64,000 bases of DNA from an uncultured archaeon (GCA_964551375.1 CAZKBG010000001.1:757150-821149); one strand, 5' to 3'; numbered from the stretch's first letter, positions 5,058 to 31,279 are shown. Made by a program: numbers and translations. The notes: generated by a model from the letters alone, not told the origin.

Positions 5058-5085
5058 ATTAGGGCAAATATTTGGGGATGAAAAA

Positions 5086-9252: not shown

Positions 9253-9654
9253 GTGGTGTTTATGACAGAACTAAAAGGAAGAAAAATATTTGGCGGCTCA
9301 ATCGAAGGAGAAGCGCTTGTAACAACACAAGGGATTTCATTCTTCGGCGGAGTAAATCCTGACAACGGCGTAGTGCAGGAAAAAGGACACGAACTTGAAG
9401 GGCAGAGCATATCAGGAAAAATACTTGTTCTCCCGCAGGGAAAAGGCTCAACAGTAGGAAGCTATGCGATTTACCGAATGAAAAAACAAGGAACTGCTCC
9501 AAAAGCGATTGTATTAAGCGAATGCGAAGCAATAGTTGCGGTAGGCGCGATAATTTCAGAAATCCCGTGCGTTGACAAGATTGATATTTCAAAAATAAAA
9601 ACAGGGCAAAAGCTGAAAGTAGACGGCGACAAAGGAATAGTTGAACTAAAATAG
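9253..9654 (+). CDS. aconitase X swivel-domain protein (DUF126), probable phosphomevalonate dehydratase small subunit
   Basis: GEALV...SFFGGVNP...GKILVLPQGKGSTVGSY pattern typical of DUF126. Likely true start is the ATG at 9262. Confidence 0.8.
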   Translation: MVFMTELKGRKIFGGSIEGEALVTTQGISFFGGVNPDNGVVQEKGHELEGQSISGKILVLPQGKGSTVGSYAIYRMKKQGTAPKAIVLSECEAIVAVGAIISEIPCVDKIDISKIKTGQKLKVDGDKGIVELK

Positions 9655-9738: not shown

Positions 9739-10389
9739 ATGTTTGGCAGAAGAGGGCAGGGCACAATAGAATACCTTGTAATTATTGCAGTTGTGATAGT
9801 TTTAGCGCTTGTTGTTTCTTATTTTATGATGGGCTCGCTTGGCTCGGCTTCAGCAGCAGAAAAGGCGAGTCTTAAAGCAGCTTGGCAGTCAAAAGAAGTG
9901 GGAATTGCTGATTTTGCAGTTGATTCAAGCGGAAGCGGAAAAATCGCATTGATGAACAACTCTGGCGAATTTGTGAGAATAAAGAAAGTTTATGTTGAAG
10001 GAGTGCTTGTTTATGACGGAACGCTTTCACTTGGAAATTTTGACAAATATGTAGTGGGCTCTTTTGCAAGCAATGTCGCAGCGTGCAGTGCGGACAGAAG
10101 ATATAGAATAAGAATAGTTTACGAGGCTGAAAGCGGGCTTGAAGATGAAGTGAGCGGAGATTTGTACCCAGAATGCATGGCAAGCGCATCACAAATAAAC
10201 ACTTTGCTTTTAAGCATCCCAAATATTGACTCAAACATAAATATCGACTTGAATGTATCAACAGGACTTTTAGGACTTGCAAACTCACAGGCAGTGAATA
10301 CAAGAAACCTTGACAATATTTCACAAGGCTCATCCCCAGACTCAAATGTAAAATATGACACTAATGTTGTGACATTAAATACAGTGTGA
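9739..10389 (+). CDS. pilin-like protein with class III (type IV prepilin-like) signal peptide
   Basis: N-terminus MFGRRG|QGTIEYLVIIAVVIVLALV. A short basic leader is followed by Q+1 and E+5, then a hydrophobic helix (DUF361-like archaeal pilin motif). The stop lies 4 nt before the start of the first giant gene. Confidence 0.7.
   Translation: MFGRRGQGTIEYLVIIAVVIVLALVVSYFMMGSLGSASAAEKASLKAAWQSKEVGIADFAVDSSGSGKIALMNNSGEFVRIKKVYVEGVLVYDGTLSLGNFDKYVVGSFASNVAACSADRRYRIRIVYEAESGLEDEVSGDLYPECMASASQINTLLLSIPNIDSNINIDLNVSTGLLGLANSQAVNTRNLDNISQGSSPDSNVKYDTNVVTLNTV
9764..10184 (+). repeat. direct repeat copy A (5' two-thirds of pilin gene); about 88% identical to 30620-31044
   Basis: Visible long identical runs shared by the two copies, e.g. 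ttttatgatgggctcgcttggctcggcttcagcagcagaaaaggc and aactctggcgaatttgtgagaataaagaaagtttatgttga. Confidence 0.8.
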
Positions 10390-10393
10390 GTTT

Positions 10394-13300
10394 ATGGGTT
10401 ATTCTAAATTTTTATTGGCTTTTATATTTATTCTTTTTTTGACAAATGTTTTTTCAGTAGACATTTCCACATGCGCTGATTTATACAATATGGCTGAATC
10501 TTCAAGCTCATTTACCGTTACAACCAATATTGACTGCGCAGCATATACAGCCGCGGGAGATAAATTTGGAAACGCAATAAATTTTTACGGAACGCTTGAC
10601 GGAGGAAACTATACTATAAGCAATATTTATGTAAATGCTCCAGGGGCAGATTATGTCGGAGGAATATTTAGAACAGTAAACAGTGTCAGCAATTTAACTC
10701 TTCAAAATGTAAAAATATATGCAAGCAACAGAAGCTATGTCGGGGGGCTTGCGGGACAATCAAGCGGAACAATAACAAATGTCACAGTAAGAGACTCAAA
10801 TATTTTTGGAAACAACTTTGCAGGAATAGTTGTGGGAAACTCTTTAGGACAGGTGCTGAATTCGTCAGTTTATGATTCAAATATTTCCGCAAACCACGCA
10901 GTTGGAGGAATGGTCGGCAGAGTATATCATAACATGCTGAATCCAAGAGTAAGCAATGCGATAATCAACGGAGTTGGGGATGCTTCAAATGCATATGGAG
11001 TGGGGGGAGTTGTTGGAACAATAGACACAACAAATAGAAGAATAGATTTGAATGATTCAGTTGTGTCGCTTGGAAATTTATACGGAACATACTTTGTGGG
11101 CGGAGCAGTAGGGGTGGCAACATGCTATTACTGCTCAAATCCAGTAACAATGAACCGAATCACAGTTAATGCAAATCAAATAACCGGAAATCAATACGTG
11201 GGCGGGCTTGCCGGGCACTTTCCATTGCCAATAACAATAACCGATTCAAACGCCACAGTGACTCAAATTACAGGAGACCGAGCAAATTCAGGCTCAATAG
11301 GAGGGCTTGTAGGGTACGCAAATGTTGTGGGGAGCAATTTATCCTTCACAGGAAATATTTCAATAAATTCCTCAGGCAGCACAACAGGGTATATCGGCGG
11401 GCTTGTCGGAAGAATTGATTCAGGCTCAATAAGAAACGCAAAAGCAGATGTAAACATTGACACTACGCTTGGCTCGGTAACAATGGATAATGTCGGCGGA
11501 ATTTTGGGATTTGATAATTCAAATACAACAATTACCGACGCAAACGTAGTCTTTGGCGTAATAAAAGGAAAAAATTCTGTCGGCGGAATTGCAGGAAATA
11601 TTACAACTTCAATTGTTCGAACAAGAGTTACCGGAACAACACTTACCGGGGTAGGCGCTGATACTTATTATGGGACTGGCGGAGTTGCGGGAACTGCAAG
11701 AGCCGACAGCAGAAGAATTGATTTGAATGACTCAGTTGTTAACATTACTACTATTAACGGAACAAGATTTACTGGGGGAATAGTCGGAGTGGGGTGGTGT
11801 TATTACTGCTCTAATCCAACAAATGTTTTCAACTCTTCTTTTACAGGCTCTGCTTTGAACGGTTATCAGTTTGCTGGAGGAATCGCAGGATATCTACCAA
11901 GCGGAACATCCCTAATTTCAAACTCAACGGCAAGAATTCCTCAAATGACTTTTTCAGGCTCTGACCCTTACTATTCAGGCGGAGTGGGAGGAGCAGTAAT
12001 TAACATAACTAATTCAAATTTTATTGGAAATATTGACGTAAGCAAATCTTCCAACACAGGAAGCGGATACTTTGGGGGAATTGCAGGACAGGCAAATTCA
12101 ATCTCAGACTCATGGGCTGACACAAATCTTAACTTAATGCTCGGAACATATGCGAGTAATTATGTCGGCGGGCTCGTTGGAAATTACACAGGAAATATTA
12201 CTTCCAGCTATGCAAAAGTCCACCATATTTGGGAACCAAGCACTTCAAACGGGACAAACATAGGGGGGCTTGCAGGGCAGGGGGCTACTGCGGGCGGATA
12301 CATAATAGACTCAAATGTAACTTTTAATGATATTAACGGAGGAAACAGCGTAGGAGGGCTTGCAGGATATACTCAAGGAAATATTTTGCGAACAAAAGTA
12401 ATTGGAAACACTTTAAGCGGAACAGGCGCCGATTCATATTATGGTGTCGGCGGGCTTGTCGGAACAATAAGAGCCGACAGCGGAAGAGTTGACCTAAATT
12501 ATGCAAATGTAAATATTACTACAATTAACGGAACAAGATTTACGGGCGGAATTGTGGGAGCTGGATGGTGTTATTACTGCTCATACACAACAAATGTATT
12601 TAACTCAACTTTCACAGGCTCTGCTTTGAACGGTTATCAGTTTGCTGGAGGAATCGCAGGATGGCTTCCAAGCGGCGCATCAAAAATATATGATTCAAAT
12701 GCGCGAATTACAAGAATTTATCTTTCAGGTTCCAACCCATATTATTCAGGAGGAGTTGGCGGACAGGCATATGATATAAACAATGCAAATTTTATAGGAC
12801 TAATTGAGGTCAACAAATCTTCCAACTCAGGAGACGGATACTTTGGAGGACTTGCGGGACACGCAAACAGTATTTCATATTCCTGGGCTGACACAAACCT
12901 TAACCTTCATCTTGGAGCATATGCGAGTAATTATGTCGGCGGGCTCGTTGGAAATTATACTGGAAACATTGACCACAGCTGGGTTAGGGTTCATCATATT
13001 TTTGAGCCTGCAACAAGCAATGGCGGAAGAGTGGGAGGACTTGCAGGGCAGGGGGCTACTGCGGGCGGATATATTTCTGATTCGAACGCCGTGTTTACTG
13101 ATATTAACGGTGGAAATGATGTTGGAGGGCTTGTTGGTTATGCGCAGGGAAATATTTTAAGAAATAAAGTTACTGGAACAAATGTTAGAGGGACTGGTTA
13201 TTTAGACGGTTATAGTTTGTATGGTGTTGGCGGATTAGTTGGAACAATGCAGGCAGGAGCGCGCTCCGATGTAAATGATAATGTTGTTGATTTGAATTCG

Positions 13301-16300
13301 GTTGTTGCTACAAGTGGTGCCGGCGGACTAGTCGGCTCGCAGTATTGTTACAGCTGTTCTTCAAGCTACTGGATGGGAGTAAATAGATCTAAGGCTGATT
13401 TGAACTGGCTGATTGGGACTACGCACGTGGGCGGCTTAGTCGGACACATTCCGCTTACAGCAAGTTTTATTGCCGACTCAAACGCAAGGATTGTAAAAAT
13501 TTTGGCCACAGGTTCCGACCCATATCACATTGCAGGACTAGCAGGAGCAAATGCAGGAGACATTATCAGGTCAAATTTTGTTGGAGAAATTGATGTTAGA
13601 AAAACAAGCGGAAGCGGAAACAACGGATACATTGCAGGACTTTCAGGGTCAGTTAGAAATATTTATTCCTCATGGGCTGATACAAATATTAACATAATGC
13701 TTGGAACTTTTTCCACAAACTATGTCGGCGGATTAACAGGATACTATTCAGGAAATATTACTTCAAGCTGGGCAAGGGTTCACCATATTTGGGAGCCTGC
13801 AACAAGTAACGGCGGAAGAGTGGGAGGACTTGCAGGATATGGGGCTACTGCGGGCGGATATATTTCTGATTCGAACGCAATGTTTACTGATATTAACGGT
13901 GGAAATGATGTCGGAGGGCTTGTTGGTTATGCGCAGGGAAATATTTTGAGAAATAAAGTTACTGGAACAAATGTCCGCGGCGCAGGACTTGCTGATGGGT
14001 ACAGTGTATATGGTGTTGGCGGTTTAGTTGGAACTATGCAATCAGGAGCGCGCTCTGATGTAAATGATAATTCAGTTGATTTAAATAGTGTCAGCGGAAC
14101 AACGGGTGTTGGCGGGTTAGTGGGTTCGCAGTATTGTTACAGCTGTTCTTCAAGCTACTGGATGGGAGTAAACCGTTCAAGCGTTCGGTTAAATTTTTTG
14201 TCTGGAACAAATTATATTGGCGGAATTTTTGGGCACGCTCCATTGACAGGGACATTTATTTCTGACTCAAATGCAAGAATTCCAAAGATTACTGCTTCAG
14301 GAACAGACCCATATCACGTTGGGGGATTATGCGGACAAACAGAAGGAGATGTGATAAGGTCAAACTTTATTGGAGAAATTGATATTAGAAAAACAAGCGG
14401 GAGCGGGAATAACGGATACATTGCAGGACTATGCGGAGCAGTAAGAAATATTTCTTACTCGTGGGCTGATACAAACATTAACATTCTACTTGGGGGATAT
14501 TCAACAAATTATGTCGGCGGATTAACAGGGTGGCTCAGAGGAAATATGACTTACAGCAATGCAATACTTGGGCATATTTGGGAACCTGCAACTTCAAACG
14601 GCGGAAGAGTAGGCGGATTAGTAGGGCAAGTAGCAGTAGCAGGCGCAAGCATTTCAGATTCAAATGTTATTTTTGTTGATATTAACGGGGGAAATGATGT
14701 TGGGGGGCTTGTTGGTTATGCGCAGGGAAATGTTCTAAGGAGCAAAGTAACTGGAGTAAATGTTCGAGGCACAGGACTTGAAGATGGTTATAGTTTGTAT
14801 GGTGTCGGCGGTTTGGTTGGGACTATGCAGTCAGGCGCGCGTTCTGATGTAAATGATTGTTCAGTTGATTTGAATAGTGTAGTGGGACTTGCAGGAGTTG
14901 GAGGAATAGTCGGCTCTCAGTATTGTTATAGTTGTTCTTCAAGCTACTGGATGGGAGTAAATAGAAGCGTTGCAAGAATTAATTCATTAATCGGAGCCAA
15001 ATACACAGGCGGAATTTTTGGGCACGCTCCATTAACAGGAAGTTTTGCAGCAGATTCAAATGCAATAATTACAAGAATTTACGCGGCGGGGAGCGACACT
15101 TATAATATTGGGGGAGTAGTAGGCGCAAACGCAGGAGATGTTATGCGCTCATATTTTATTGGAACAATTGATGTAAGCAAATCTTCAAACACTGCTAACG
15201 GCGGAATTGGAGGAGTTGCAGGGTCAGTGCGAAATGTATACCAATCCTACGCAGACACAAATATTGATTTTACATTAGGGAATTATTCAGGAAACAGCGT
15301 TGGGGGAGTTGCAGGAAGCGCGGTTACAATAAATGACTCCTACGTTAGAGCAGCTTATATTAAATCAACGCGCTCGGGCTCATATACAGGAGGACTTGTT
15401 GGGTACGCTCAAGGAAATATTAATCACTCATACGCGGCAGTTGCCGATGTAAATGGATATTCATCAGTTGGAGGGCTTGTGGGATACTTTACAAGCTCTT
15501 ACACGGTTTCAAATTCATTCTTTGTGGGAAAAGCAAAAGCATCAAGCTCGGTTGATAATAATATTTTAGCAGGCGCAAACGGAAGCGTATCAAACTGCTA
15601 CTTTAACAACACAGGCTCAAGCGTTGTTTACAAATTAAATGCGGGCTCAACAACAGAACAAGACCCAAACGCGGGCTCATCATTTTTCAAAGGCAATTCT
15701 ACAAACCCTCCATTTGGAGCGGGAGTAGGCGACTGGAATTTTAGCGGAATATGGTATGTGTGGTCAAACGATTATCCTAAATTTGTTAAAAAACTGGCTT
15801 ATTACACAAGCGGAATATTCATTTCTCCAGCAATCAATCTTGGCACCCCAAAAAGATTTGTTTCATTCGACTTCAACGGCAATTTTCCGAACGGAACAGA
15901 TGTAAATTTCCAAATAAGAACCGCTGACTCAAACTCAAATCTTTCAAGCGAAGACTGGGTGGGGCCAAATGACAGCACAAGCGAATATTACAACAGCACA
16001 AGCACAAAAGCAATAACAACCGCGCATGATTTTGATTCATGGATGCAATGGAGAGCAAAACTTTATACAAACGACGAAATAATCACTCCTACAATTTACT
16101 ACGCTGATGTAAACACAGTGGGAATAGGAAGCGTAATATGGTATGGACTATCTGACGGGGCGCAGTGGAGCTCGTTTGATTATAATGTGGTATCAACAAA
16201 CGGCGGAAGCGTTGACTGGTTCTACGGGCCGTCAACAACAGGTCCATGGACTGCGACATCAATGCTTCTTAGCGGACAAAATGTTATAGGGATAAAAGCA

Positions 16301-16378
16301 GTAGCAAGCGCTTCAATTGACGCAAATACTCCAAATATAAGCCCTGATTTGAACGTGTCTTACTCAAGACAAAACTAA
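10394..16378 (+). CDS. giant secreted GLUG-repeat surface protein (1994 aa)
   Basis: Signal peptide MGYSKFLLAFIFILFLTNVFS. N-terminal conserved module (I-S-x-C-x-x-L...NIDC...G-T-L-D-G-x-x-Y-x-I-x-N-I). Dozens of YVGGLxG / VGGLVGY GLUG-type units arranged in about 260 aa super-repeats. Diverged copy of the C-terminal domain shared with the three downstream paralogs. Confidence 0.8.
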   Translation: MGYSKFLLAFIFILFLTNVFSVDISTCADLYNMAESSSSFTVTTNIDCAAYTAAGDKFGNAINFYGTLDGGNYTISNIYVNAPGADYVGGIFRTVNSVSNLTLQNVKIYASNRSYVGGLAGQSSGTITNVTVRDSNIFGNNFAGIVVGNSLGQVLNSSVYDSNISANHAVGGMVGRVYHNMLNPRVSNAIINGVGDASNAYGVGGVVGTIDTTNRRIDLNDSVVSLGNLYGTYFVGGAVGVATCYYCSNPVTMNRITVNANQITGNQYVGGLAGHFPLPITITDSNATVTQITGDRANSGSIGGLVGYANVVGSNLSFTGNISINSSGSTTGYIGGLVGRIDSGSIRNAKADVNIDTTLGSVTMDNVGGILGFDNSNTTITDANVVFGVIKGKNSVGGIAGNITTSIVRTRVTGTTLTGVGADTYYGTGGVAGTARADSRRIDLNDSVVNITTINGTRFTGGIVGVGWCYYCSNPTNVFNSSFTGSALNGYQFAGGIAGYLPSGTSLISNSTARIPQMTFSGSDPYYSGGVGGAVINITNSNFIGNIDVSKSSNTGSGYFGGIAGQANSISDSWADTNLNLMLGTYASNYVGGLVGNYTGNITSSYAKVHHIWEPSTSNGTNIGGLAGQGATAGGYIIDSNVTFNDINGGNSVGGLAGYTQGNILRTKVIGNTLSGTGADSYYGVGGLVGTIRADSGRVDLNYANVNITTINGTRFTGGIVGAGWCYYCSYTTNVFNSTFTGSALNGYQFAGGIAGWLPSGASKIYDSNARITRIYLSGSNPYYSGGVGGQAYDINNANFIGLIEVNKSSNSGDGYFGGLAGHANSISYSWADTNLNLHLGAYASNYVGGLVGNYTGNIDHSWVRVHHIFEPATSNGGRVGGLAGQGATAGGYISDSNAVFTDINGGNDVGGLVGYAQGNILRNKVTGTNVRGTGYLDGYSLYGVGGLVGTMQAGARSDVNDNVVDLNSVVATSGAGGLVGSQYCYSCSSSYWMGVNRSKADLNWLIGTTHVGGLVGHIPLTASFIADSNARIVKILATGSDPYHIAGLAGANAGDIIRSNFVGEIDVRKTSGSGNNGYIAGLSGSVRNIYSSWADTNINIMLGTFSTNYVGGLTGYYSGNITSSWARVHHIWEPATSNGGRVGGLAGYGATAGGYISDSNAMFTDINGGNDVGGLVGYAQGNILRNKVTGTNVRGAGLADGYSVYGVGGLVGTMQSGARSDVNDNSVDLNSVSGTTGVGGLVGSQYCYSCSSSYWMGVNRSSVRLNFLSGTNYIGGIFGHAPLTGTFISDSNARIPKITASGTDPYHVGGLCGQTEGDVIRSNFIGEIDIRKTSGSGNNGYIAGLCGAVRNISYSWADTNINILLGGYSTNYVGGLTGWLRGNMTYSNAILGHIWEPATSNGGRVGGLVGQVAVAGASISDSNVIFVDINGGNDVGGLVGYAQGNVLRSKVTGVNVRGTGLEDGYSLYGVGGLVGTMQSGARSDVNDCSVDLNSVVGLAGVGGIVGSQYCYSCSSSYWMGVNRSVARINSLIGAKYTGGIFGHAPLTGSFAADSNAIITRIYAAGSDTYNIGGVVGANAGDVMRSYFIGTIDVSKSSNTANGGIGGVAGSVRNVYQSYADTNIDFTLGNYSGNSVGGVAGSAVTINDSYVRAAYIKSTRSGSYTGGLVGYAQGNINHSYAAVADVNGYSSVGGLVGYFTSSYTVSNSFFVGKAKASSSVDNNILAGANGSVSNCYFNNTGSSVVYKLNAGSTTEQDPNAGSSFFKGNSTNPPFGAGVGDWNFSGIWYVWSNDYPKFVKKLAYYTSGIFISPAINLGTPKRFVSFDFNGNFPNGTDVNFQIRTADSNSNLSSEDWVGPNDSTSEYYNSTSTKAITTAHDFDSWMQWRAKLYTNDEIITPTIYYADVNTVGIGSVIWYGLSDGAQWSSFDYNVVSTNGGSVDWFYGPSTTGPWTATSMLLSGQNVIGIKAVASASIDANTPNISPDLNVSYSRQN
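11030..15600 (+). repeat. intragenic tandem super-repeat array (about six copies, 771-790 bp period, one CxxC motif per copy)
   Basis: Copy starts near 11044, 11701, 12472, 13262, 14051 and 14838. Near-identical stretches such as gatattaacggtggaaatgatgt...gggcttgttggttatgcgcagggaaat occur at about 13098, 13887 and 14683. Protein-level repeats RSDVNDNxVDLNSV...GSQYCYSCSSSYWMGVNRS. Confidence 0.85.
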
Positions 16379-16399
16379 ATAACTTAATAGACTAAATTT

Positions 16400-16420
16400 A
16401 AGGCTTTTTTAGCCTTTTGT
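16400..16420 (+). terminator. hairpin plus T-run after giant gene 1
   Basis: aaggct ttttt agcctt followed by ttgtt. Confidence 0.4.
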
Positions 16421-16443
16421 TATATAAAATAAGTAGTGAAAAA

Positions 16444-17256: not shown

Positions 17257-17264
17257 TCATTAAT

Positions 17265-17313
17265 AAAGCTTTTATTTGACTTAATCCTACTTTAACATTA
17301 AGCAGGGACTTAA
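17265..17313 (+). promoter_or_regulatory. conserved promoter/leader element upstream of giant gene 2 (TATA-like ttttatttg, then leader ...agcagggacttaa ending at the start codon)
   Basis: About 75% identical to 21184-21233, upstream of giant gene 3. Confidence 0.5.
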
Positions 17314-21138: not shown

Positions 21139-21155
21139 AGTTAACTGATAAATTG

Positions 21156-21176
21156 GGCAATTTGCCTTGTTTTAAT
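21156..21176 (+). terminator. hairpin plus T-run after giant gene 2
   Basis: gggcaa ttt gccttgtttt. Confidence 0.35.
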
Positions 21177-21183
21177 CCTGAAA

Positions 21184-21233
21184 AAAGCTTTTATTTAACT
21201 TAAACCTAATTCTAGCACAAAGCAGGGAACTTA
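21184..21233 (+). promoter_or_regulatory. conserved promoter/leader element upstream of giant gene 3
   Basis: aaagcttttatttaacttaaacct...agcagggaacttaa immediately precedes ATG. Paralogous to 17265-17313. Confidence 0.5.
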
Positions 21234-24200
21234 ATGATGGCAAATTTTAACAAATTACTTTTAGGGATCTTATTAATTTTAATAATAAGTCAGGTTTTTG
21301 CATTTAGCGGCGGAACTGGAACAAGCGGAGACCCTTACAGAGTAAATGCCTGCGCAGATATTGACTGGATGGATACTAATGCATCTACAAAATCAGCATA
21401 CTATGTTCTTGATTCAAATGTGGACTGCGGAGTATCGCCTTATAATACAGGAAGCGGGTTTACTCAAGTAACAGGATTTGCAGGATCGCTTGACGGACAA
21501 GGATACTGGGTAAAAAACTTAATGATTTACCTTCCAACAACAAATAATGTTTCACCATTTGCTGCAGGAAGCGCGTTCACAATAAAAAATATTGGATTTG
21601 ATGTAAATATCACAGGACAGGATTATGTATCCGGATTCATGACTGATTATTTGAATAGGGACTTAAATAACATAAAAGTAAGCGGAACAATAATAGGGAG
21701 AAATTATGTGGGCGGAATTACATCAAGAAGCAATGCGGGAATAAAAATCACAAACAGCTCTGTTGACTTGACTTTGATAAGCGGAAATGAATATGTAGGG
21801 GGACTTGCCGCATACTATGGAGGGGATTTCAATTACTGCACAATAAAAATAAACCGAATAGAAGGGCAGTTTTCTGTGGGCGGAGCAAGCGGATGGATGT
21901 TTAATGGAAGCAATGGAGTGTCCTATATTCAAAATACAACTGCTGACATAAACCTACTAAAAGTAACACACACTTCAGCTAATGGCTATTACACTTTAGT
22001 CGGAGGATTAGTCGGAAGATTTTCTTCAAGCGGATTTATAAGAAGCGCAAATGTGCGAGTAAATTTAATTGATGTCAATAATGCGACTGCAGACCCTGGA
22101 AAAATAGGGGGGCTTGTCGGAGGACATGACCGCGCAGGCGGATATCTTTATGATGTAAATTTTACAGGAACAATAAATTATCGAAACACATCTGGGGCAG
22201 CGTACCTTGGGGGAATTGTGGGGCACGAGGAATCAGGGCCAATTACTTATTCCCGCGCGGATATTAACATTGACACAAATCTTAGCTCAGCAAGCGGAAC
22301 ATATGTAGGCGGAATTATTGGAAGCTCAAGTTATGATTTGAATAATATTTATGTTAATTCATCATACATTTATGCAGCGGGCACAAATGGAAATTATGTC
22401 GGAGGAGTGGGCGGCTCTTCAAGCGCAGTTTATAACGCGGTGGCTGATATTGGAGAAGTAAGAGGATTAAGCCAAGTCGGCGGGCTGCTTGGAGGCTCAG
22501 GAATTGCAGCAGGAGTAATATCTTCAAGATTAAATGCAAAAACAATTGTCGGAACAACCACCGAAATAGGCGGATTTATCGGATACGCAAAAGGGGACGT
22601 AAATTACTGCGATTCGAACGTTCAAATCTTAATTGGCTCTCAATATGTTGGAGGGCTTCTTGGAAATTCATTCAATCAAAGCGATGCAAGCTCAAAAGTT
22701 TATATGACTAATAGTTATGTTCGGGACATGAATGTAACAAATCCAACAAGCGTGGGCGGGCTTGTGGGGCGATTTTCAGGAAGAAGAGTGGAACGTTCTT
22801 TTGCGGAAGTAAAAAGACTATATGTTGATAATTCAGTCGGAAACGACGCGCTCATCGGAGGGCTGATTGGACAAACTGGATACTCTGACTGGACAATAAG
22901 AGACTCAAATTCACGAGCGCAGATAGATTACACTTACAGCGGAGCATCAAACAATAGTTATATTGGAGGAATTGCAGGAAATACTGGAACTCCTATAAGC
23001 GGATGCAGGGCAGATGTAAATATTGATGCTGATTTAGGCACAAAAGCTCCAAATTATGTGGGCGGGATTACTGGAAAATCAACCGGCACAATAACAAACT
23101 CTCACGCAAGCGGAGCTTACATAAAAGCAAAAAATAGCGGAGGCACTGGGGTAGGAGTGGGCGGAATTAGCGGAAGCTCATACACAGTATATAATTCAAC
23201 TTCAAATTTTATTGATATAAACGGAAACCTTAATGTTAGCGGAATCAGCGGAAACCTTGCTATTGGGGATGTGAACGGCTCAACTGCAACAATAAGCGGA
23301 ATACTTTACGGAAAATACAATATCGGCGGAGCAGTAGGAAACGGAGCAAATAATTCAGTAGCAGTATTTAATTCAGGCGCAACAATAAACAAAATATATG
23401 CTGATAATTCAACAGCAAATGATATGTCTGTAGGTGGAGTGGTGGGGGTTATTACAAATGCAAGAACAGTAACTGGTTGCTGGGCAAGGATTGGAACAAT
23501 TTATGCAAAAAATACGAGCGCATCAAACACTGGCGGAGTGGGAGGAGTTGCGGGATATGTTTATCAAAACTCAAACAATGCCCCGATGAGAGATTCAAAC
23601 GCAATAGTTTCACTAATACAATATGAAAGCACAAGCACAGGAGATGCATTTGTTGGAGGACTGGCTGGGAGACAAATGGGGCTTGTATCAAATTCTTGGG
23701 CGGATGTAAATATTGACGCGTCAATTGGAACATACACTGGCGGATATGTGGGCGGGCTTGTCGGGTACGCATATGGGGTAGTATCAAATTCGTGGGCAAG
23801 AGGAAATTATATTAAAGCAACAAAAACAAATTCGCAATATGTTGGCGGACTTGTGGGAAGATCTACTGGGATAACAAATTCCTATTCAATATTTTCTGAT
23901 ATAAACGGGCTGACAAAAGTGGGCGGGCTTGGGGGATACTCAAGCGGAGCGGTGCTTGACTCAAATTCAGTTTTAAATAGCGTTAATGGGACAAGCAATG
24001 TTGGCGGATTAATTGGACTCGGAGATTCTGATGTTAACAGGTCAAAAACAATAATTGGCACAATAACTGGGACAATGCTTGTGGGGGGAGTAATAGGCGA
24101 ATTATCCAACAGCTCCACATTTATGTATGATTTAAGCGCGGATGTAAATTTAATAAAAGTAACACACACAGCAGGCGGACAAATTAATGCAGGGGGAATA

Positions 24201-25811
24201 ATCGGGCTTGCAACAAACACAAAAGGAATGAGACAAGCTGCTGCGAGAATTAAATTAATGGATATAAATAATTCAAGCGGAAGCGATGCAGGCGGAATTG
24301 GAGGAATTGCGGGATATTTGTATCACAATGCAAATACAGCACAACTCTTAGACGCAAATTCAACAGTTCAAATAAATTACACAAACTCAAGCACAGGCGC
24401 AGGATATATCGGGGGAGTAGTTGGGTTGCATAATGGATATATTTCAAACTCTTGGGCTGACTCAAATATTAATGCAGAACTTGGAACAAGAAGCGGAACT
24501 TATGTCGGCGGACTTGCGGGAAATGCTGCAAGTTATATTTCAAATTCATATTCGACAGGCGGGAATATCCTCGCATCAAAGACAGGTGGGGGATATGTTG
24601 GTGGACTTGCTGGAAGAATTGGCGGAGCAGCAACAAATGTCTACGCACTCTACAATGACGTCAACGGAGTTGACTATACTGGAGGACTTATAGGAAGCGG
24701 GCAAGGCGCAGTAAATACATACACAATAAATCGAACAGTGTATGGTGCAGATAGAGTAGGGGGATTAATCGGCTATTCCAGAGGGGATATAAACACTTCC
24801 TACTCAGGAGATGCAAATGTAATTGGAAGCACAAATGTAGGGGGAATAACAGGATACTATGATCCGCCCGGAACAACATATCACATAAATAATTCATTTA
24901 CAACAACAAGAGTAACAGGAAGTTCAGTAACAGGCGCAGTAACAGGATATGTAGTAACATACAGCTGGCCTTCGCCTCCAGTAGTAAACACATACTACAC
25001 TTTCGGCTCGGCAGCGGCTGGAAGAGGGACACTTGAAAGCGATGGACCATCATATTTTAAAGGAAAAGGAAAAACACTTCTTGGAATAACCCAAGGAACT
25101 TCCCCAAAACACCCTTATGCAAATCCTGATGCAAATTGGAATTTTAATTACACAGGGCACCCTGGGCTTTGGTACGGCTGGCAGTTAAGCTACCCGCATT
25201 TTACAACAGACCCTATTGTTACTTATGTTCCTAATGGAGAATATCAATCAAGAGCAATTGATTTAAGCTCAATGAAAAAATGCATCGCGCTAACTACAAA
25301 CATGATAAAACCTACTGACAGCAATATCAAAATCCAAATACAAGTTGCTGATAATAATACTTCATGGTGGGCATCTCCAAACTGGATGGGGCCTGACGGG
25401 ACAGACAATACTTATTATTCAAACGGAAGTTATTCAATTCCTGACATTAATGCTGATGGAAATTGGATAAGATGGAGAGCAGTATTCACTTCCTCAAGCG
25501 ACAGCTTAACTCCAACTCTAATAAGCATTGACTTTAACTGCATACCAATAGGGGAAATGGTGTTAATTGCGAATGGAAATAATCTTAACTGGAGAGGGAT
25601 AGCTTACAATGCGATAACCGGCGGAATAAACGGCTCGCTTGAGTGGCTTTACAAAATAGGAAGCGGAAATTGGGATTCAATTGATAATAATTCCTTCCCT
25701 GCGCTAACCACTGGAACTCCTCTTTATATTAAAGCAATAATGACTGGAACAATAGATTCCAATGGACCAATAATGGATAATAATATTGTTTTATCCTACC
25801 GCCCTAATTAA
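21234..25811 (+). CDS. giant secreted GLUG-repeat surface protein (1525 aa)
   Basis: Signal peptide MMANFNKLLLGILLILIISQVFAFS. N-module GDPYRVNACADIDWM...VDCGVSPYNTGSGFTQVTGFAGSLDGQGYWVKNL. GLUG units. Conserved C-terminal domain. Confidence 0.8.
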   Translation: MMANFNKLLLGILLILIISQVFAFSGGTGTSGDPYRVNACADIDWMDTNASTKSAYYVLDSNVDCGVSPYNTGSGFTQVTGFAGSLDGQGYWVKNLMIYLPTTNNVSPFAAGSAFTIKNIGFDVNITGQDYVSGFMTDYLNRDLNNIKVSGTIIGRNYVGGITSRSNAGIKITNSSVDLTLISGNEYVGGLAAYYGGDFNYCTIKINRIEGQFSVGGASGWMFNGSNGVSYIQNTTADINLLKVTHTSANGYYTLVGGLVGRFSSSGFIRSANVRVNLIDVNNATADPGKIGGLVGGHDRAGGYLYDVNFTGTINYRNTSGAAYLGGIVGHEESGPITYSRADINIDTNLSSASGTYVGGIIGSSSYDLNNIYVNSSYIYAAGTNGNYVGGVGGSSSAVYNAVADIGEVRGLSQVGGLLGGSGIAAGVISSRLNAKTIVGTTTEIGGFIGYAKGDVNYCDSNVQILIGSQYVGGLLGNSFNQSDASSKVYMTNSYVRDMNVTNPTSVGGLVGRFSGRRVERSFAEVKRLYVDNSVGNDALIGGLIGQTGYSDWTIRDSNSRAQIDYTYSGASNNSYIGGIAGNTGTPISGCRADVNIDADLGTKAPNYVGGITGKSTGTITNSHASGAYIKAKNSGGTGVGVGGISGSSYTVYNSTSNFIDINGNLNVSGISGNLAIGDVNGSTATISGILYGKYNIGGAVGNGANNSVAVFNSGATINKIYADNSTANDMSVGGVVGVITNARTVTGCWARIGTIYAKNTSASNTGGVGGVAGYVYQNSNNAPMRDSNAIVSLIQYESTSTGDAFVGGLAGRQMGLVSNSWADVNIDASIGTYTGGYVGGLVGYAYGVVSNSWARGNYIKATKTNSQYVGGLVGRSTGITNSYSIFSDINGLTKVGGLGGYSSGAVLDSNSVLNSVNGTSNVGGLIGLGDSDVNRSKTIIGTITGTMLVGGVIGELSNSSTFMYDLSADVNLIKVTHTAGGQINAGGIIGLATNTKGMRQAAARIKLMDINNSSGSDAGGIGGIAGYLYHNANTAQLLDANSTVQINYTNSSTGAGYIGGVVGLHNGYISNSWADSNINAELGTRSGTYVGGLAGNAASYISNSYSTGGNILASKTGGGYVGGLAGRIGGAATNVYALYNDVNGVDYTGGLIGSGQGAVNTYTINRTVYGADRVGGLIGYSRGDINTSYSGDANVIGSTNVGGITGYYDPPGTTYHINNSFTTTRVTGSSVTGAVTGYVVTYSWPSPPVVNTYYTFGSAAAGRGTLESDGPSYFKGKGKTLLGITQGTSPKHPYANPDANWNFNYTGHPGLWYGWQLSYPHFTTDPIVTYVPNGEYQSRAIDLSSMKKCIALTTNMIKPTDSNIKIQIQVADNNTSWWASPNWMGPDGTDNTYYSNGSYSIPDINADGNWIRWRAVFTSSSDSLTPTLISIDFNCIPIGEMVLIANGNNLNWRGIAYNAITGGINGSLEWLYKIGSGNWDSIDNNSFPALTTGTPLYIKAIMTGTIDSNGPIMDNNIVLSYRPN

Positions 25812-25905
25812 AATGATCTTTTTTAACGCCTCAATTTTAATTAATGGTCAATGGCAAGGATTAAATATCTAAAATAACTAACTCTTCTGACTTGTTGGTC
25901 GAATT

Positions 25906-28900
25906 TTGAAAGTGAACTTTGTGAAAATTATGAAAAAAATAATTCTTGCGCTGATTATTTTATGTATTTCAGCAACTGTATTTTCAATAAACATCTCCGA
26001 CTGCACAGGGCTTCAATCAATGAGCGGCGCAAACAGTTACACTTTGACTGGGAATATTGACTGCACTGCGACAAATACTTGGAACAGCGGAGCGGGATTT
26101 GCGCCAATAACTTCCTTCACTGGAACGCTTAACGGCGCAGGATACACGATAAGGGGATTGTATATTAATAGAACTGGATCAAACAGTCAGGCGCTAATCG
26201 GGACAAGCACAAATGCCACATTAACAAATATTGTTTTTGAAGACGCTAATATTGCAATGTACAATTACGGAGGAGTGCTTCTTGCAAATGGGAGCGCAAC
26301 AATATCAAATATTACTGTAAGAAATTCAATTATACGCTCGGTGGGAAATGTTGGGTATGTTGGAGGAATTGCGGGAAATTATACCGGCGGGCAGTTTACA
26401 AACAGCTCAATTTATGGCTCAGTGGTAAGCGGACCAGGGTATGTCGGAGGATTGATTGGAAAATTCGGAATGGCTTCAAATAACGCTTCAATAGACATAA
26501 ATGACTGTTATGCGGATTTAAATTCAGTTACTTCAAGCGGGGATTATGTTGGCGGAATAGTGGGACAGCTCACAAATACTGGGACAGGAACTTTGAGTTC
26601 AATCAACCGCTCAACAGCAGTAGTAAGAACTTTGTTTGGATACTCCTATGTCGGAGGAATTGTGGGCTCTCACGTTGGGGCTGGCGGAACAATTTCTGAT
26701 GTTAATATAACTTTAAGCAGCTGGAGTCTTCGAGGCTCAAGCTTTGCGCGAATAGGTGGAATAGCAGGAAACTTGGCTGGAACTTTGACAAGATCATTTG
26801 CAATAATAAATCTTGATATCAATAACACCTCCGCATCAGGAGATTATGTCGGAGGGCTTGTCGGTTACGGATTAGGCTCCACAATTTCAGATTCATACGC
26901 TGATGTAAATATTGACACTACAATAAGCAATGCAGAAAGAGTAAATGCATATGTTGGAGGAATTGTGGGTTATGGGAGCAATATTTATCGTTCATACGCG
27001 CGAGGATACAAATTATACTCCGGACAATACACTGGAATGTATGTCGGAGGGCTTGCCGGAAGACTTGACGGAAATATTTCAGACTCAAACGCAACATTTA
27101 CCTCAATAATCGGAGGAGGCGGATATTATGGAGACGGATATGTCGGCGGACTTGTGGGATACTTTCACGGAAATTATATAATACGAAGCAAAGCAACAGC
27201 AAATTTAGTTAAAGTGACAAGAGCAAATTCAGTTGCCAATTATGCAGGCGGATTAATAGGGGGAATATCAACAGCAGGAAATAAAGACATTAACAACTGC
27301 ACAGTGGATGTAAATAATGTTGAAGGATTTAGAACAAGCAATGGAAGTGATTCAGGAATTAGCGGATTAATAGGATTTGTAGCAAATGTTGCCGGAATTC
27401 ACGTATCAATAAATCAAACTTCTGTTCGGTCAAAATTACTTTACGCAACAGGAGATGGAATCGGCGGATTTATTGGGTACATGGTTAACTCTTCGGGCTC
27501 GCTAACAATAACAGATTCAAACGCAACAATTGAAAGAATACACTTATACGGCGGAGCAGGATACGGGTATGTCGGCGGGCTAATAGGAAGAGCATCAGTT
27601 GGAAGAGCAAACATAACAAACTCATTTGCAATATCCCAAATAGATATTAATCTTCCATCAAGCTCAAATGGCCTTGGATATGTCGGCGGACTTGCAGGCG
27701 CGATTGGGACAGGAAATGTTTCGGATTCATGGGCTGACACAAATGTAAATGGAAACTTTAACACCTATTCTCCAAGGTATGTCGGCGGGTTAATTGGAAG
27801 CGCTGATGTTAATTTAATCAGAACATATGCAAGAGGAACTTATCTTGACGCAAACAAAAGCGGAGGATATTATGTTGGGGGACTTGCAGGAGCATGCTCA
27901 TGGAATGTAACTGATTCAAACGCAACTTTTGAAAGAATAGACGGCAGCGGCTCATATTACGGAGACGCATATATTGCAGGGCTCGTTGGAAGTTTTACAG
28001 GAAATTATATTTTAAGAAGCAAAGCAATAGTAACTTCAATAACCGCGCCAACCTATCCAACTAACTTTGTTGGAGGCTTAGTCGGAGGAATTGGAGTAGC
28101 AGGAAATAAGGATATTAATTATTGCAGCGCGGATGTAAATATAATTTCAGCAACAAAAACAAGCAACGGCTCAACAACAGGAGTAGGTGGGTTAATAGGA
28201 TTTGTGGCAAATGTTGCAATCAATTTATCAATAAATAATTCATCCGCTCGAACAGGGACTATTTATGGAATAGGAGACGGGCTTGGGGGATTACTTGGAT
28301 ATATGGTCAGCTCATCAGGCTCATTAAAAATAATTGATTCAAACGCAATTACTGACAGAATATATTTTTACGGGGGCGGAGGGAGTGGATACTTTGGCGG
28401 TCTTGCAGGAAGAGCCTATGCTGGCAGAGTAGATATAAATAATTCATTTGCAATTTCTCAAATAGATGTTAACGCAACAGCAGGTCTTGATTATGTCGGA
28501 GGGTTAGCAGGAGAGGCATCTTTATCAGGACTAATATACAACTCATGGGCTGACACAAACATTAACGGCTCGTTTGGAACATATTCTCCGGGAAATGTTG
28601 GAGGGCTTTTTGGCTCGGCAGATGTAAATATAATTCAATCATATGCGCGAGGAAATTATATAAAAATAACCAAAGCAAACGGCTCAAATGTGGGCGGATT
28701 TGCCGGAAAATTATCAGGAGATGTTTTGGATTCAAATGTTGTGTTTGTTGATATTAATGGAAGCAGTTCCTCATATGGTTATGGATATGTGGGCGGGTTT
28801 GTCGGATATTATACAGGCGGGTATATTTTAAGAAGCAAAGTTAATGCAGTACATGTCACTGGATACAGGGCAGACTCGCTAACGGATAAAGTAGGAGGGT

Positions 28901-30537
28901 TTATTGGATATGTTAGGTCAACAAAAGCCACTGACATAAACGACTGCTTTGTCACAGTAACTGCAGTGCGCGGATACAAAAATAACAACGGCAGCAGCTC
29001 AAATGTGGGCGGATTAATCGGAGACTCATACGGTTCATATCCTTTAACAATAAATCATTCATTTGTAAATGCAGATTTAATCAGCGCAACCTCATCAGAA
29101 GTAGGCGGCTTAGTCGGGAATTCAAACAGATCTCCGTTAGTTATAATGGACTCAAACGCAGTGGTCAGACAAATAGTTGTTACTGGGACTCCGGGAAGAA
29201 TTGGGGGGCTTGTTGGAAGCGCATCAACAAACTCTTTAATTACAAATACTTACGCTTCATCAAATTTAATTTTAAGCAATTCCTCAGTATCGCCAGCTTA
29301 TTACGGAGGGCTAATCGGACACATTGGAGGAGGGCTTGTGACAAAATCATACGCTGACACTAATATTGATGCAACAATTGGGGCTTATTCAGGCTCCCAA
29401 ATAGGCGGATTAATCGGATACTCTGCCGCGCAGATACTAAACACTTATGCGCACTCAGGGTACATAATGGCAACAAAATCCTACGGCTCAAGAATTGGGG
29501 GGCTTGTAGGACACCTTGACTCAACAGTGACAAACTCTTATGCAATAGTCGACACTGATGTAAACGGAGTGGATAACATTGGAGGGGTGGCAGGATATGT
29601 TGGAAACACATACTCAGTTAATAATTCATTCTTTGTTGGAAGAGCAAAAGCAACAAGCACTCCTGATAACAATATTGTTGGAAATGCCTCCGCATCTAAT
29701 GTAGTTAATTGTTATTTTTACAAAACAGGAGCTGCTTCAGTGTGCAGCCAAAGCGGAACAACAGTAACCTGTGGAATAGACAATCCTTCTATGACTGATT
29801 ATTTTAAAGGCAAAACAAGCACAATCAGATTAAGAGCTCCTTTCTCCGGCGGGGCAGTGGATTGGAATTTTAATTACACAGGACACGCAGGAGTATGGTA
29901 CGGGTGGTACAGAGATTATCCTCACTTTATACTTGACCCAACTACGCCGCATGTGCCTGTCGGAGAATACAAATCAGTTCCGTTAGAATTAGCAACTGCA
30001 AAAAAATGCCAGTATATTGATTTTAATTTTGTGCAGGTGGGAAACTCTGATGTGAATATACAGATACAAATCGGAGATTTAAACGCTGCAATGTGGGATG
30101 ATTCAAACTGGTTCGGACCGGACGGCACAAGTTCAACAGCATATACTTTAACAAGCGACAAAAATATTCCATCCTCAAAAGGAAACGGCAAATGGATAAG
30201 ATGGAAAGCAATGCTTTACGCTTCAACAGAAGGCGAAACCCCTGCGTTAAAAAGCGTTGACTTTAATTGTATACCAATAGGCGAAATGGTTTTAGTAGCA
30301 AATGCAGACCTTGCTACCTGGTATAGAATTGATTATAATGAAATATTTTCAGGAACACACGGCACAGTTGACTGGCTGTATAATGTTGGATTTGGATGGG
30401 GAACAATAACACTCAATTCATTCCCTCCCGCAATTATGGGAAGCCCGCTTTATTTGAAAGCAAAAATAGCGGGAAGGGCGGATTCAAATGTTCCGGCAAT
30501 TGACAACAATATTATGGTCGCATATAGGGTAAATTAG
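25906..30537 (+). CDS. giant secreted GLUG-repeat surface protein (about 1535-1543 aa)
   Basis: The ORF-track start at 25906 is TTG; the first ATG at 25930 gives MKKIILALIILCISATVFS. N-module INISDCTGLQSM...IDCTATNTWNSGAGFAPITSFTGTLNGAGYTIRGL. GLUG units with internal duplications. Conserved C-terminal domain. Confidence 0.8.
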   Translation: MKVNFVKIMKKIILALIILCISATVFSINISDCTGLQSMSGANSYTLTGNIDCTATNTWNSGAGFAPITSFTGTLNGAGYTIRGLYINRTGSNSQALIGTSTNATLTNIVFEDANIAMYNYGGVLLANGSATISNITVRNSIIRSVGNVGYVGGIAGNYTGGQFTNSSIYGSVVSGPGYVGGLIGKFGMASNNASIDINDCYADLNSVTSSGDYVGGIVGQLTNTGTGTLSSINRSTAVVRTLFGYSYVGGIVGSHVGAGGTISDVNITLSSWSLRGSSFARIGGIAGNLAGTLTRSFAIINLDINNTSASGDYVGGLVGYGLGSTISDSYADVNIDTTISNAERVNAYVGGIVGYGSNIYRSYARGYKLYSGQYTGMYVGGLAGRLDGNISDSNATFTSIIGGGGYYGDGYVGGLVGYFHGNYIIRSKATANLVKVTRANSVANYAGGLIGGISTAGNKDINNCTVDVNNVEGFRTSNGSDSGISGLIGFVANVAGIHVSINQTSVRSKLLYATGDGIGGFIGYMVNSSGSLTITDSNATIERIHLYGGAGYGYVGGLIGRASVGRANITNSFAISQIDINLPSSSNGLGYVGGLAGAIGTGNVSDSWADTNVNGNFNTYSPRYVGGLIGSADVNLIRTYARGTYLDANKSGGYYVGGLAGACSWNVTDSNATFERIDGSGSYYGDAYIAGLVGSFTGNYILRSKAIVTSITAPTYPTNFVGGLVGGIGVAGNKDINYCSADVNIISATKTSNGSTTGVGGLIGFVANVAINLSINNSSARTGTIYGIGDGLGGLLGYMVSSSGSLKIIDSNAITDRIYFYGGGGSGYFGGLAGRAYAGRVDINNSFAISQIDVNATAGLDYVGGLAGEASLSGLIYNSWADTNINGSFGTYSPGNVGGLFGSADVNIIQSYARGNYIKITKANGSNVGGFAGKLSGDVLDSNVVFVDINGSSSSYGYGYVGGFVGYYTGGYILRSKVNAVHVTGYRADSLTDKVGGFIGYVRSTKATDINDCFVTVTAVRGYKNNNGSSSNVGGLIGDSYGSYPLTINHSFVNADLISATSSEVGGLVGNSNRSPLVIMDSNAVVRQIVVTGTPGRIGGLVGSASTNSLITNTYASSNLILSNSSVSPAYYGGLIGHIGGGLVTKSYADTNIDATIGAYSGSQIGGLIGYSAAQILNTYAHSGYIMATKSYGSRIGGLVGHLDSTVTNSYAIVDTDVNGVDNIGGVAGYVGNTYSVNNSFFVGRAKATSTPDNNIVGNASASNVVNCYFYKTGAASVCSQSGTTVTCGIDNPSMTDYFKGKTSTIRLRAPFSGGAVDWNFNYTGHAGVWYGWYRDYPHFILDPTTPHVPVGEYKSVPLELATAKKCQYIDFNFVQVGNSDVNIQIQIGDLNAAMWDDSNWFGPDGTSSTAYTLTSDKNIPSSKGNGKWIRWKAMLYASTEGETPALKSVDFNCIPIGEMVLVANADLATWYRIDYNEIFSGTHGTVDWLYNVGFGWGTITLNSFPPAIMGSPLYLKAKIAGRADSNVPAIDNNIMVAYRVN

Positions 30538-30595
30538 CGGATTAGAAAGGATTAAAAAGAATCAAAACATTATCTTTGAAAAGGTTTGATACAAA

Positions 30596-31279
30596 ATGCA
30601 TGCAAAAAAAAGGGGACAGGGAACAATTGAATACCTTGTTATAATAGCGGTTGTAATTGTGCTTGCATTAGTAACATCATATTTTATGATGGGCTCGCTT
30701 GGCTCGGCTTCAGCAGCAGAAAAGGCTTCGTTAAAAACAGCATGGCAGACAAAAGAAGTGGGAATTGCCGATTTTGCAGTTGATTCAGACGGAGCGGGAA
30801 AAATTGCCATAATGAATAACTCTGGCGAATTTGTGAGAATAAAGAAAGTTTATGTTGACGGAGTGCTTGTTTATGACGGAACGCTTTCACTTGGAAATTT
30901 TGATAGATATGTAGTGGGTTCTTTTGCTGAAAATGTGACTTCTTGCAGCGCGGACAGAAGATACAGTATAAGAATAATTTACGAGGCTGAAAGCGGGCTT
31001 GAAGATGAAGTGAGCGGAGACTTGTACGCAGAATGCATGGCAAGATTGAATGAAGGCGCGCTAAGATTCTTGCAGTTAACCGACGCGAATTTGAGTCTTG
31101 GGGACACAATCAACGTTTCAGCAGCAACAGGATACTTTACTTTAATTGACGCCAACTTTGTGAACTCAAGAAGCATAACTTATGGAAATGAAGGCTTTGG
31201 AGAGTACGGCGGCGTTGATTTAAACACAACAAGAAACACCGATAACAACTATATAGAACTTGACGTACAAGCTGAATAA
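30596..31279 (+). CDS. pilin-like protein with class III signal peptide; paralog of 9739-10389
   Basis: MHAKKRG|QGTIEYLVIIAVVIVLALV. The first roughly 145 aa are nearly identical to the upstream pilin-like protein; the C-terminus has diverged. Confidence 0.7.
   Translation: MHAKKRGQGTIEYLVIIAVVIVLALVTSYFMMGSLGSASAAEKASLKTAWQTKEVGIADFAVDSDGAGKIAIMNNSGEFVRIKKVYVDGVLVYDGTLSLGNFDRYVVGSFAENVTSCSADRRYSIRIIYEAESGLEDEVSGDLYAECMARLNEGALRFLQLTDANLSLGDTINVSAATGYFTLIDANFVNSRSITYGNEGFGEYGGVDLNTTRNTDNNYIELDVQAE
30620..31044 (+). repeat. direct repeat copy B (pairs with 9764-10184)
   Basis: See copy A. The two copies bracket about 20.8 kb. Confidence 0.8.

Follow-up and report, generated by a model that had tools for sequence, protein, structure and literature searches.

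The stretch of DNA analysed here, which we call the window, comprises 64,000 nucleotides (nt) from an uncultured archaeon (GCA_964551375.1, CAZKBG010000001.1:757150-821149) and contains an island of giant genes bracketed by two pilin-like genes, pilA and pilB, that share a direct repeat. The gene order reads thiolase, GHMP kinases, UbiX, UbiD, AcnX large subunit, AcnX small subunit (AcnX-S), pilA, giant1, ipk, giant2, giant3, giant4 and pilB, followed by the gamma, delta, alpha and beta subunits of POR. The genes from thiolase to AcnX-S are the archaeal mevalonate cluster, and ipk, encoding isopentenyl phosphate kinase, is the last gene of that cluster, stranded among the giants. The closest named homologues of ipk belong to metagenome-assembled genomes (MAGs) of Candidatus Diapherotrites, which are DPANN archaea. 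A first-pass annotation, made from the sequence alone, had described the repeats as bracketing a giant-gene island with an embedded ipk gene. This description is accurate: four giants with GLUG repeats and ipk lie between the repeats, and ipk passes the NCBIfam equivalog cut-off of 120 bits (Table 1).

Both pilin-like proteins carry the class III signal motif RGQGTIEYLVIIAVVIVLAL and score above the cut-off of Pfam PF04021 (Class_IIIsignal, 23.7 bits), while a Pfam Pilin_N match of pilA stayed below its cut-off. In NCBIfam, no family matched the pilins or the giants. An AlphaFold2 (AF2) model of the pilA product, calculated from a shallow alignment of 10 sequences (mean predicted local distance difference test score, pLDDT, 62.5), comprises a helix at residues 9-32 and then a second helix and a seven-strand beta-sandwich extending to about residue 148. 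The pLDDT is 70-88 up to about this residue and below 50 in the tail (149-216). The best fold matches of the model in the PDB are archaeal pilins (8tib and 8q30), and they are weak (E ~1e-3, TM-scores 0.23-0.40). The signal peptide justifies the term pilin-like, for which the modelled fold gives tentative support only.

A blastn comparison of positions 9000-32000 with themselves aligned 9750-10184 with 30610-31044 over 435 nt without gaps (86.2% identity, 515 bits, far above chance), and a repeat-finding run paired 9750-10049 with 30610-30909 at 85% identity (family D8). Among repeats of at least 200 nt in this interval the pilin repeat has the highest similarity; the runner-up, at 76%, is internal to giant1. 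The two copies are spaced 20,860 nt. From the GQG codon to ECMA they align over 429 nt without gaps and with 59 mismatches, the longest perfect runs being 47, 44, 43 and 41 nt. Similarity is lost abruptly at both ends, a few nt 5' of the GQG codon and 2 nt past ECMA; the intergenic flanks of the two genes cannot be aligned, and their 3' thirds share 43% of the nt and 19-21% of the amino acids (aa). The first-pass annotation was therefore right to report direct repeats of about 420 bp, 20.8 kb apart, with identical runs over 40 bp and divergent 3' thirds. Its figure of about 88% identity is confirmed as well, with one refinement: the first 66 nt are 69.7% identical and saturated at synonymous sites, and the truly similar part comprises the remaining 363 nt, which are 89.3% identical. 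In the 66-nt segment, which encodes the signal peptide and hydrophobic helix, the DNA divergence between pilA and pilB equals or exceeds that of cross-species pairs, while the encoded protein is almost invariant throughout the family, in all types.

The family to which the two genes belong is small, with 13 matches per query among 5.8 billion proteins. Its members, designated by P numbers for proteins and L numbers for the loci of relatives, split into three types according to their tails. The A-type comprises pilA (P0001), P0002 and P0003; the B-type comprises the pilB tail, P0007, P0008, P0009 and the gene on L009; and the C-type comprises P0004, P0005 and P0006. A-type genes stand after AcnX-S and before a giant (L001 and the P0002 contig), B-type genes after a giant and before POR gamma (L004-L007, L009), and L001, L004 and L009 are collinear with the window over their respective junctions. 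A scan of genome contigs returned three loci, one of them a second contig of MAG co115_24 (GCA_964544205.1), which has both types on two contigs at the corresponding positions (A_co115 and B_co115). P0002 and P0007, which were compared as proteins only, come from one JGI sample. Over the region that is highly similar in the window, A- and B-type proteins share 56.9% of the aa in co115_24 and 58.7% in the P0002/P0007 pair, compared with 89.3% for pilA and pilB. Since both types occupy fixed positions in the relatives and have heads that are 57-59% identical there, both pilin genes must be old, and pilA and pilB are, as judged by sequence and position, old positional paralogues. The contig of L009, the name of which states a coverage of about 4x, has a run of 10 N (262-271) within the head-coding part of the co115_24 B-type gene, which marks masked sequence or a gap in the scaffold.

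pilA and pilB resemble each other closely in one segment only. The codon-aligned DNA sequences were compared in sliding windows, rates of synonymous (dS) and nonsynonymous (dN) substitution were calculated by the method of Nei and Gojobori, and neighbour-joining trees were bootstrapped. pilA is the top match of pilB only from alignment nt ~60 to ~450. The 5'-most windows of pilB are closer to orthologues of another MAG (in the first of them, B_co115 85% and A_co115 81%, compared with 75% for pilA), and from nt 480 onward B_co115 reaches 71-90% compared with 38-49% for pilA. Over the intervening tract, dS between pilA and pilB is 0.27 and dN 0.08, whereas dS of all other pairs is 0.77-2.7 or saturated; the identity of pilB at the nt level is 89% to pilA and 73% to the co115_24 A-type gene. 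The protein comparison gives the same picture, with the pilB head sharing 88% of its aa with pilA, 74-76% with other A-types and 49-64% with B-types, and the pilB tail sharing 21% with pilA, 20-23% with other A-types and 69-89% with B-types (88-89% with B_co115 and P0007). The trees conflict accordingly: in the head tree, pilA and pilB group together (100% bootstrap) nested in the A clade (100%), and in the tail tree pilB falls into the B clade (87.5%).

Diagnostic residues, defined as those at which the two A orthologues differ from the two B orthologues, point in the same direction. At the 24 such sites in the tract, pilB has the A-type residue 19 times and the B-type residue twice, while in the tail the counts are 0 A-type and 37 B-type (tract versus tail, Fisher P = 2e-13). 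The 5' end of pilB contains too few diagnostic sites to be typed as A or B. pilA is A-type along its full length, with protein-level head sites at 19 A and 1 B. Given that pilA is A-type throughout and pilB only in the tract, the direction of transfer is from A to B, and because the tract is bounded on both sides it fits a patch better than the result of a single crossover or a duplication. The tract's 39 differences in 363 nt are not evenly spread but form clusters (permutation P = 0.0003). Some of these contain synonymous switches of more than one nucleotide (Ser AGT/TCG, Leu CTT/TTA), and in two clusters pilB retains the B-type residue. In the AF2 model, the tract corresponds to the head domain, the part modelled with confidence.

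Table 1. Positions of the pilin-like genes, their segments and the neighbouring genes in the window
Feature	Position	Strand	Basis and remarks
pilA, A-type class-III-signal (archaeal type IV pilin-like) gene, 216 aa	9739-10389	+	Class_IIIsignal 29.9 bits; orthologues P0002 and P0003 likewise 3' of AcnX-S
pilA signal-peptide/hydrophobic-helix coding segment	9754-9819	+	Within the repeat as first described, unconverted; 69.7% nt identity, saturated dS
Putative conversion tract, pilA copy (helix 2 and beta-sandwich head, about aa 28-148)	9820-10184	+	89.3% nt identity to 30680-31042
pilA A-type tail	10185-10386	+	77-84% aa identity to A-type orthologues, 21% to pilB; low-confidence, possibly unstructured
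pilB, chimeric pilin-like gene, 227 aa	30596-31279	+	Class_IIIsignal 31.2 bits
pilB signal-peptide/hydrophobic-helix coding segment	30614-30679	+	Unconverted; pilA is a poorer match than A- or B-type orthologues
Putative conversion tract, pilB copy	30680-31044	+	89.3% nt identity, dS 0.27, dN 0.08; mostly A-type diagnostic states
pilB B-type tail	31045-31276	+	88-89% aa identity to B_co115 and P0007, 21% to pilA
AcnX small subunit (phosphomevalonate dehydratase), left backbone gene	9253-9654	+	Pfam AcnX_swivel_put
giant1, 1994-aa secreted GLUG-repeat protein, 4 nt 3' of pilA	10394-16378	+	Pfam Glug, Sec-type N-terminus
ipk, isopentenyl phosphate kinase, 270 aa	16444-17256	+	IPPK_Arch equivalog 165.6 bits; identical to P0014
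giant2, 1274-aa GLUG-repeat protein	17314-21138	+	Pfam Glug, island comparison
giant3, 1525-aa GLUG-repeat protein	21234-25811	+	Pfam Glug, island comparison
giant4, 1543-aa GLUG-repeat protein, 58 nt 5' of pilB	25906-30537	+	Collinear L004 orthologue, 53% aa identity
POR gamma subunit, right backbone gene	31387-31932	+	Pfam POR; syntenic in L004, L009 and L095

We consider the repeat to be, with a probability of about 0.85, the footprint of an interlocus (ectopic) gene conversion from pilA to pilB between ancient paralogues, so that the high identity of the two genes reflects the secondary homogenisation of old paralogues. The mosaic, its direction and its relative age are demonstrated by the analyses. 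The tract has a low dS and is bounded on both sides, its tree conflicts with that of the tail, and a donor and a recipient could be assigned. In addition, gene order and both flanks are syntenic with the relatives, as after a non-crossover event. The conversion took place after the co115_24 and P0002/P0007 lineages had branched off, and it is not very recent.

In the course of events that we propose, a diverged pilA after AcnX-S and a diverged pilB before POR gamma would already have been present in the common ancestor with the relatives. A break or a stalled replication fork in pilB would then have been repaired by RadA-dependent strand invasion, for which pilA, located on a sister copy or at a distance of 20.9 kb on the same chromosome, would have served as the template, and the intermediate would presumably have been resolved with no crossover. 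In this way about 365 nt encoding the second helix and the beta-sandwich head may have been copied non-reciprocally from pilA into pilB, and the 5' end encoding the signal peptide and helix as well as the type-specific tail would have been left unaffected. Short islands of old differences within the tract suggest either patchy mismatch correction or several short events. Afterwards the two copies would have drifted to a dS of ~0.27 with the gene order kept. The repeats could in principle serve as substrates for unequal crossover, but a resulting deletion that removes ipk should be counter-selected, because the ipk enzyme completes the mevalonate pathway that supplies isoprenoid lipids. One conceivable advantage of the conversion is that all heads would continue to fit one assembly partner, with the tails remaining specific.

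A different history had been put forward in the first-pass annotation, namely a segmental duplication in which a pilin-giant unit was copied, so that the repeats would be the remnant of that unit and the 3' thirds would have diverged later. If this duplication were recent, the likeness should span the full copied unit, its flanks and the adjacent giant, but the similarity is confined to an internal patch of 363 nt with unalignable flanks, giant1 and giant4 share 33% of their aa, and the two units are not collinear, as a giant follows pilA but precedes pilB. The saturated synonymous sites of the 5' 66 nt and the gap between heads (89% aa) and tails (19-21%) are equally difficult to reconcile with a copied unit, and so are the 88-89% identity of the pilB tail to B-types at the same place elsewhere (giant, pilin, POR gamma) and the coexistence of A and B genes with 57-59% heads in the relatives. 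Since the pilin-giant module recurs (window and L001, L002, L004), a deep duplication of pilin-giant modules is plausible, but the high-identity repeat is not its relic, and a recent duplication is highly improbable. Somewhat less improbable, though still unlikely, is that the patch was imported by homologous recombination with A-type DNA of a related strain or species and not copied from the resident pilA. Such an import yields the same mosaic pattern, and with a dS of 0.27 the donor may have differed somewhat from pilA. On the other hand, no known sequence comes nearly as close to the patch as pilA (89% at the nt level, compared with 73% for the co115_24 A-type gene), incoming A-type DNA would have found homologous flanks at the pilA locus and not at pilB, and the family is very small (the 13 matches in 5.8 billion proteins).

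The first 66 nt fit well with selection on the protein, purifying or convergent, that maintains the likeness without any exchange of DNA, as the protein is nearly invariant across the types there while the synonymous sites differ. In the tract, however, the synonymous sites are alike as well (dS 0.27 versus at least 0.77), with perfect DNA runs of 41-47 nt, and the heads of orthologous B-types, which are under the same constraints, are only 49-64% identical to that of pilB; we regard this explanation as the least probable of all. Hardly more credible is an artefact of the assembly, either by pilA reads being built into pilB or by a mis-join of 20.8 kb at the repeat. Such an error might be expected in a repeat-rich island in which two independent short-read contigs (L091, L092) both stop at window position 18325, and the exact products of pilA and pilB were found on no indexed contig. 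Nevertheless, a collapsed or copied assembly would have left identical tracts, and the tracts differ at 39 of 363 positions with B-type states retained in clusters in pilB, which argues against a chimeric assembly. The left junction (AcnX-S, pilA, giant1) is collinear with L001 and the right junction (giant4, pilB, POR) with L004 and L009, the segment giant1-ipk-giant2 is reproduced by Logan contigs from two runs, and none of the perfect runs, with 47 nt at most, reaches the usual read and k-mer sizes.

Several points nevertheless weigh against gene conversion from the resident pilA. Before conversion, the heads would have shared about 65% of the nt, as judged from A_co115 and B_co115, and homologous recombination works poorly on such a substrate; the event must therefore have been rare or assisted by microhomology. 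The first ~100 nt have few diagnostic sites, and the 5' boundary of the tract is set by dS and window identity only. About 12 members of the family are known, with the DNA of an A-type orthologue from one only. At the DNA level, the shared head has B-like states at 15 of 34 sites compared with 12 of 60 in the pilA tail (P = 0.018), which may reflect either a minor contribution from B to A or noise. Conversion in both directions, with B-to-A patches, is thus suggested by DNA counts that involve this single A-type DNA orthologue, and the protein-level sites are contrary to it. The choice of the resident pilA as donor, and not of the A-type gene of a close relative, follows the best sequence similarity and is to be read as probable. 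Finally, pilB is absent from the collection of 5.8 billion proteins, in which pilA (P0001) and ipk (P0014) of the same 946-kb NCBI contig are present.

Gene conversion between dispersed paralogues has been described in prokaryotes for tufA/tufB of Salmonella and flaA/flaB of Campylobacter, and archaeal thermosome (chaperonin) subunit paralogues were reportedly given as an example by Archibald and Roger in 2002. The pair studied here is similar to the tuf, thermosome and fla paralogues in that an internal tract would have been copied non-reciprocally between dispersed genes of one chromosome, with a low tract dS, conflicting segment trees and an intact gene order. In contrast to these cases, pilA and pilB were already strongly diverged (head about 57-59% aa), only the head was homogenised while the tails stayed distinct, the host is an uncultured DPANN archaeon, and there is no sign of ongoing frequent conversion (dS 0.27). 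In Neisseria, silent promoterless pilS cassettes donate variable C-terminal segments to the single expressed locus pilE at high frequency and with the help of a G4 (guanine quadruplex) initiator, the outcome being diversity. The likeness to this system, conversion between pilin copies on one chromosome that leads to mosaic genes, is superficial, as pilA and pilB are two full-length genes, the conserved head was moved and the outcome was homogenisation; silent cassettes, a G4 element and signs of a high frequency were not found, no tests having been aimed at them. The adhesion pilins PilA1-6 of Haloferax volcanii have a common conserved N-terminal H-domain. Like them, pilA and pilB are paralogous archaeal type IV pilin-like genes with a near-identical N-terminal and a differing C-terminal part; unlike the shared H-domain of PilA1-6, however, the H-domain DNA of pilA and pilB is unconverted and the globular head is the converted part.

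Archaeal type IV pilus loci encode proteins with class III signals beside large secreted proteins that are proposed adhesins, and archaeal pilins, including those of DPANN archaea, are fast-evolving and lineage-specific (PMC4858521, PMC6393860). pilA and pilB likewise are class III signal genes next to genes for large secreted proteins. They differ from these loci in that genes for a pilus ATPase, TadC and a prepilin peptidase were not found in the 64-kb window, in that the large proteins contain GLUG repeats and not DUF2341, and in the insertion into a mevalonate-pathway cluster.

The case is ordinary concerted evolution of paralogues by conversion and unsurprising in kind. It corrects the history of the locus, as the repeats bracketing the island would be the recombination footprint of long-separated paralogues and not the scar of a recent duplication. 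It also indicates that ectopic homologous recombination can act across about 21 kb in a small DPANN genome, and that it may act domain-wise on surface proteins, homogenising the head and keeping the tails distinct. As a consequence, the identity of paralogues is unusable for the dating of duplications in this genome. Its value lies in a well-documented example and in a lead to a pilin-giant adhesin module. The adjacency of a pilin gene and a giant recurs with an A-type gene before the giant (window, L001), a C-type gene before the giant (L002) and a B-type gene after it (L004). The C-type gene P0006 is followed by a giant at L002 (10001-12077) and at L003, in the runs SRR12133403/4 that are shared with the organism of the window; the neighbourhood contains a zinc-ribbon gene together with genes for the ribosome and for transcription, and the G+C content of L002 is 0.382 compared with 0.395 for the window. 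On contig CAZJVN010000017.1 of another uncultured archaeon (L010, 9914-11830), a 638-aa open reading frame (ORF) fuses a pilin-like N-terminus with the motif RGQGTIEYLVIIAVVIVLAL to GLUG-type repeats. This fusion and the three independent adjacencies hint at a functional link between pilins and giants. We propose, as a speculative idea with a low chance of being correct, that the pilins and GLUG giants form a lineage-specific surface attachment module of DPANN archaea of the Iainarchaeia/Diapherotrites type, in which the common head acts as anchor or as assembly unit and the type-specific tail (A, B or C) pairs with the neighbouring giant. If this were true, selection would have favoured homogenised heads but strictly conserved tails, so that all pilins stay fit for one assembly machine, and the module's position within the mevalonate operon would then be incidental. 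A third ORF with a class III signal (…STAQGTIEYLVIMAIVIVIALV…) lies at ~63249-64000 on the plus strand, 3' of cdc6/orc1 (61931-63181), and runs past the end of the window; over 56 nt, the DNA encoding its signal has 87.5% identity to the corresponding part of a pilin gene in L011.

The giants have Sec-type signal peptides and GLUG motifs and are 29-38% identical to each other at the aa level in all pairs. Orthologues elsewhere are closer, with 62% aa identity between giant1 and L001, 53% between giant4 and L004 and 65% between giant2 and L011. A foreign origin of the island was considered on the basis of base composition and rejected, as the G+C content of 0.38-0.43 compared with 0.37-0.40 in the flanks gives no signal. 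In L093 and L094, ipk directly follows AcnX-S, and pilA and giant1 are absent; the ipk of these loci is 78% identical, and the samples from which they derive also yielded the B-type gene P0009. L095, a locus of a Diapherotrites MAG that is more distant, has neither pilins nor giants; there, AcnX-S is followed by ipk, an unrelated 184-aa ORF and POR gamma. The 184-aa ORF was examined as a candidate for an ancestral pilin and rejected, since the class III signal is absent from its sequence. Taken together, the island looks like the result of stepwise insertion into a conserved AcnX-S/ipk/POR backbone, with polarity assigned by parsimony, and this stepwise build-up would have left ipk, which is presumed to be essential, between giant adhesin genes.

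Repeats of this kind had further been suspected in the first-pass annotation of mediating deletion or amplification of everything between them, and related genomes were to be compared for presence or absence of the segment. Pieces of the island do vary among the relatives (pilA with giant1, or the whole island), but the structural end points lie outside the repeats. Every arrangement retains ipk, and since a deletion between the repeats would remove ipk, none of them is such a deletion. A junction AcnX-S-pilin-POR was not seen among the arrangements of L093, L094 and L095, nor was any amplification by the repeats, and a scan of metagenome contigs with general signal-peptide patterns gave, among the matches listed, only distant pilins with at most 49% identity over short segments. 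The structural comparison was made at the level of the relatives' assemblies, and rare variants within the population are beyond its reach.

The assembly risk that had been attributed to the repeat is real, but at the internal repeats of the giants, where independent contigs end, and it is minor at the pilin repeat itself with its short perfect runs. The Logan contigs L091 and L092, from two runs, cover giant1-ipk-giant2 at 100% and 99.97% identity, and both end within the repeats of giant2. Three island junctions are independently supported in this way, the left and right ones by synteny and giant1-ipk-giant2 by contigs; the support does not extend to giant2-giant3-giant4. Within giant1 (11612-15181), head-to-tail units of ~771-789 nt are 71-76% identical over up to 1.5 kb and in frame, and these are more likely than the pilin repeat to cause breaks in the assembly and variation in length. 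Tandem Repeats Finder returned none in 9000-32000, its period limit of 500 being below the size of the units.

Some further observations concern the surroundings of these genes. At the ends of L093 (10805-11016) and L094 (10805-11006), a G+C-rich non-coding stretch of ~130 nt lies 3' of ipk in an A+T-rich genome, and both loci, which are independent assemblies, terminate in this stretch; an Rfam scan of the window and L093 at gathering thresholds gave no matches, and the stretch is without an Rfam match. In the gap between giant1 and ipk (~16400-16416), a hairpin is followed by a series of T's (AAGGCTTTTTTAGCCTT). Similar promoter-like stretches, AAAGCTTTTATTTRACTTAA … AAGCAGGGA, are located 5' of giant2 (17268-17312) and of giant3 (21185-21232). 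In the mevalonate cluster (4065-6015), two GHMP-kinase ORFs (4065-5057 and 5005-6015) overlap in tandem, at a place where L001, L093 and L095 have a single one. The AcnX route requires mevalonate kinase only, which leaves the second GHMP-kinase copy unaccounted for.

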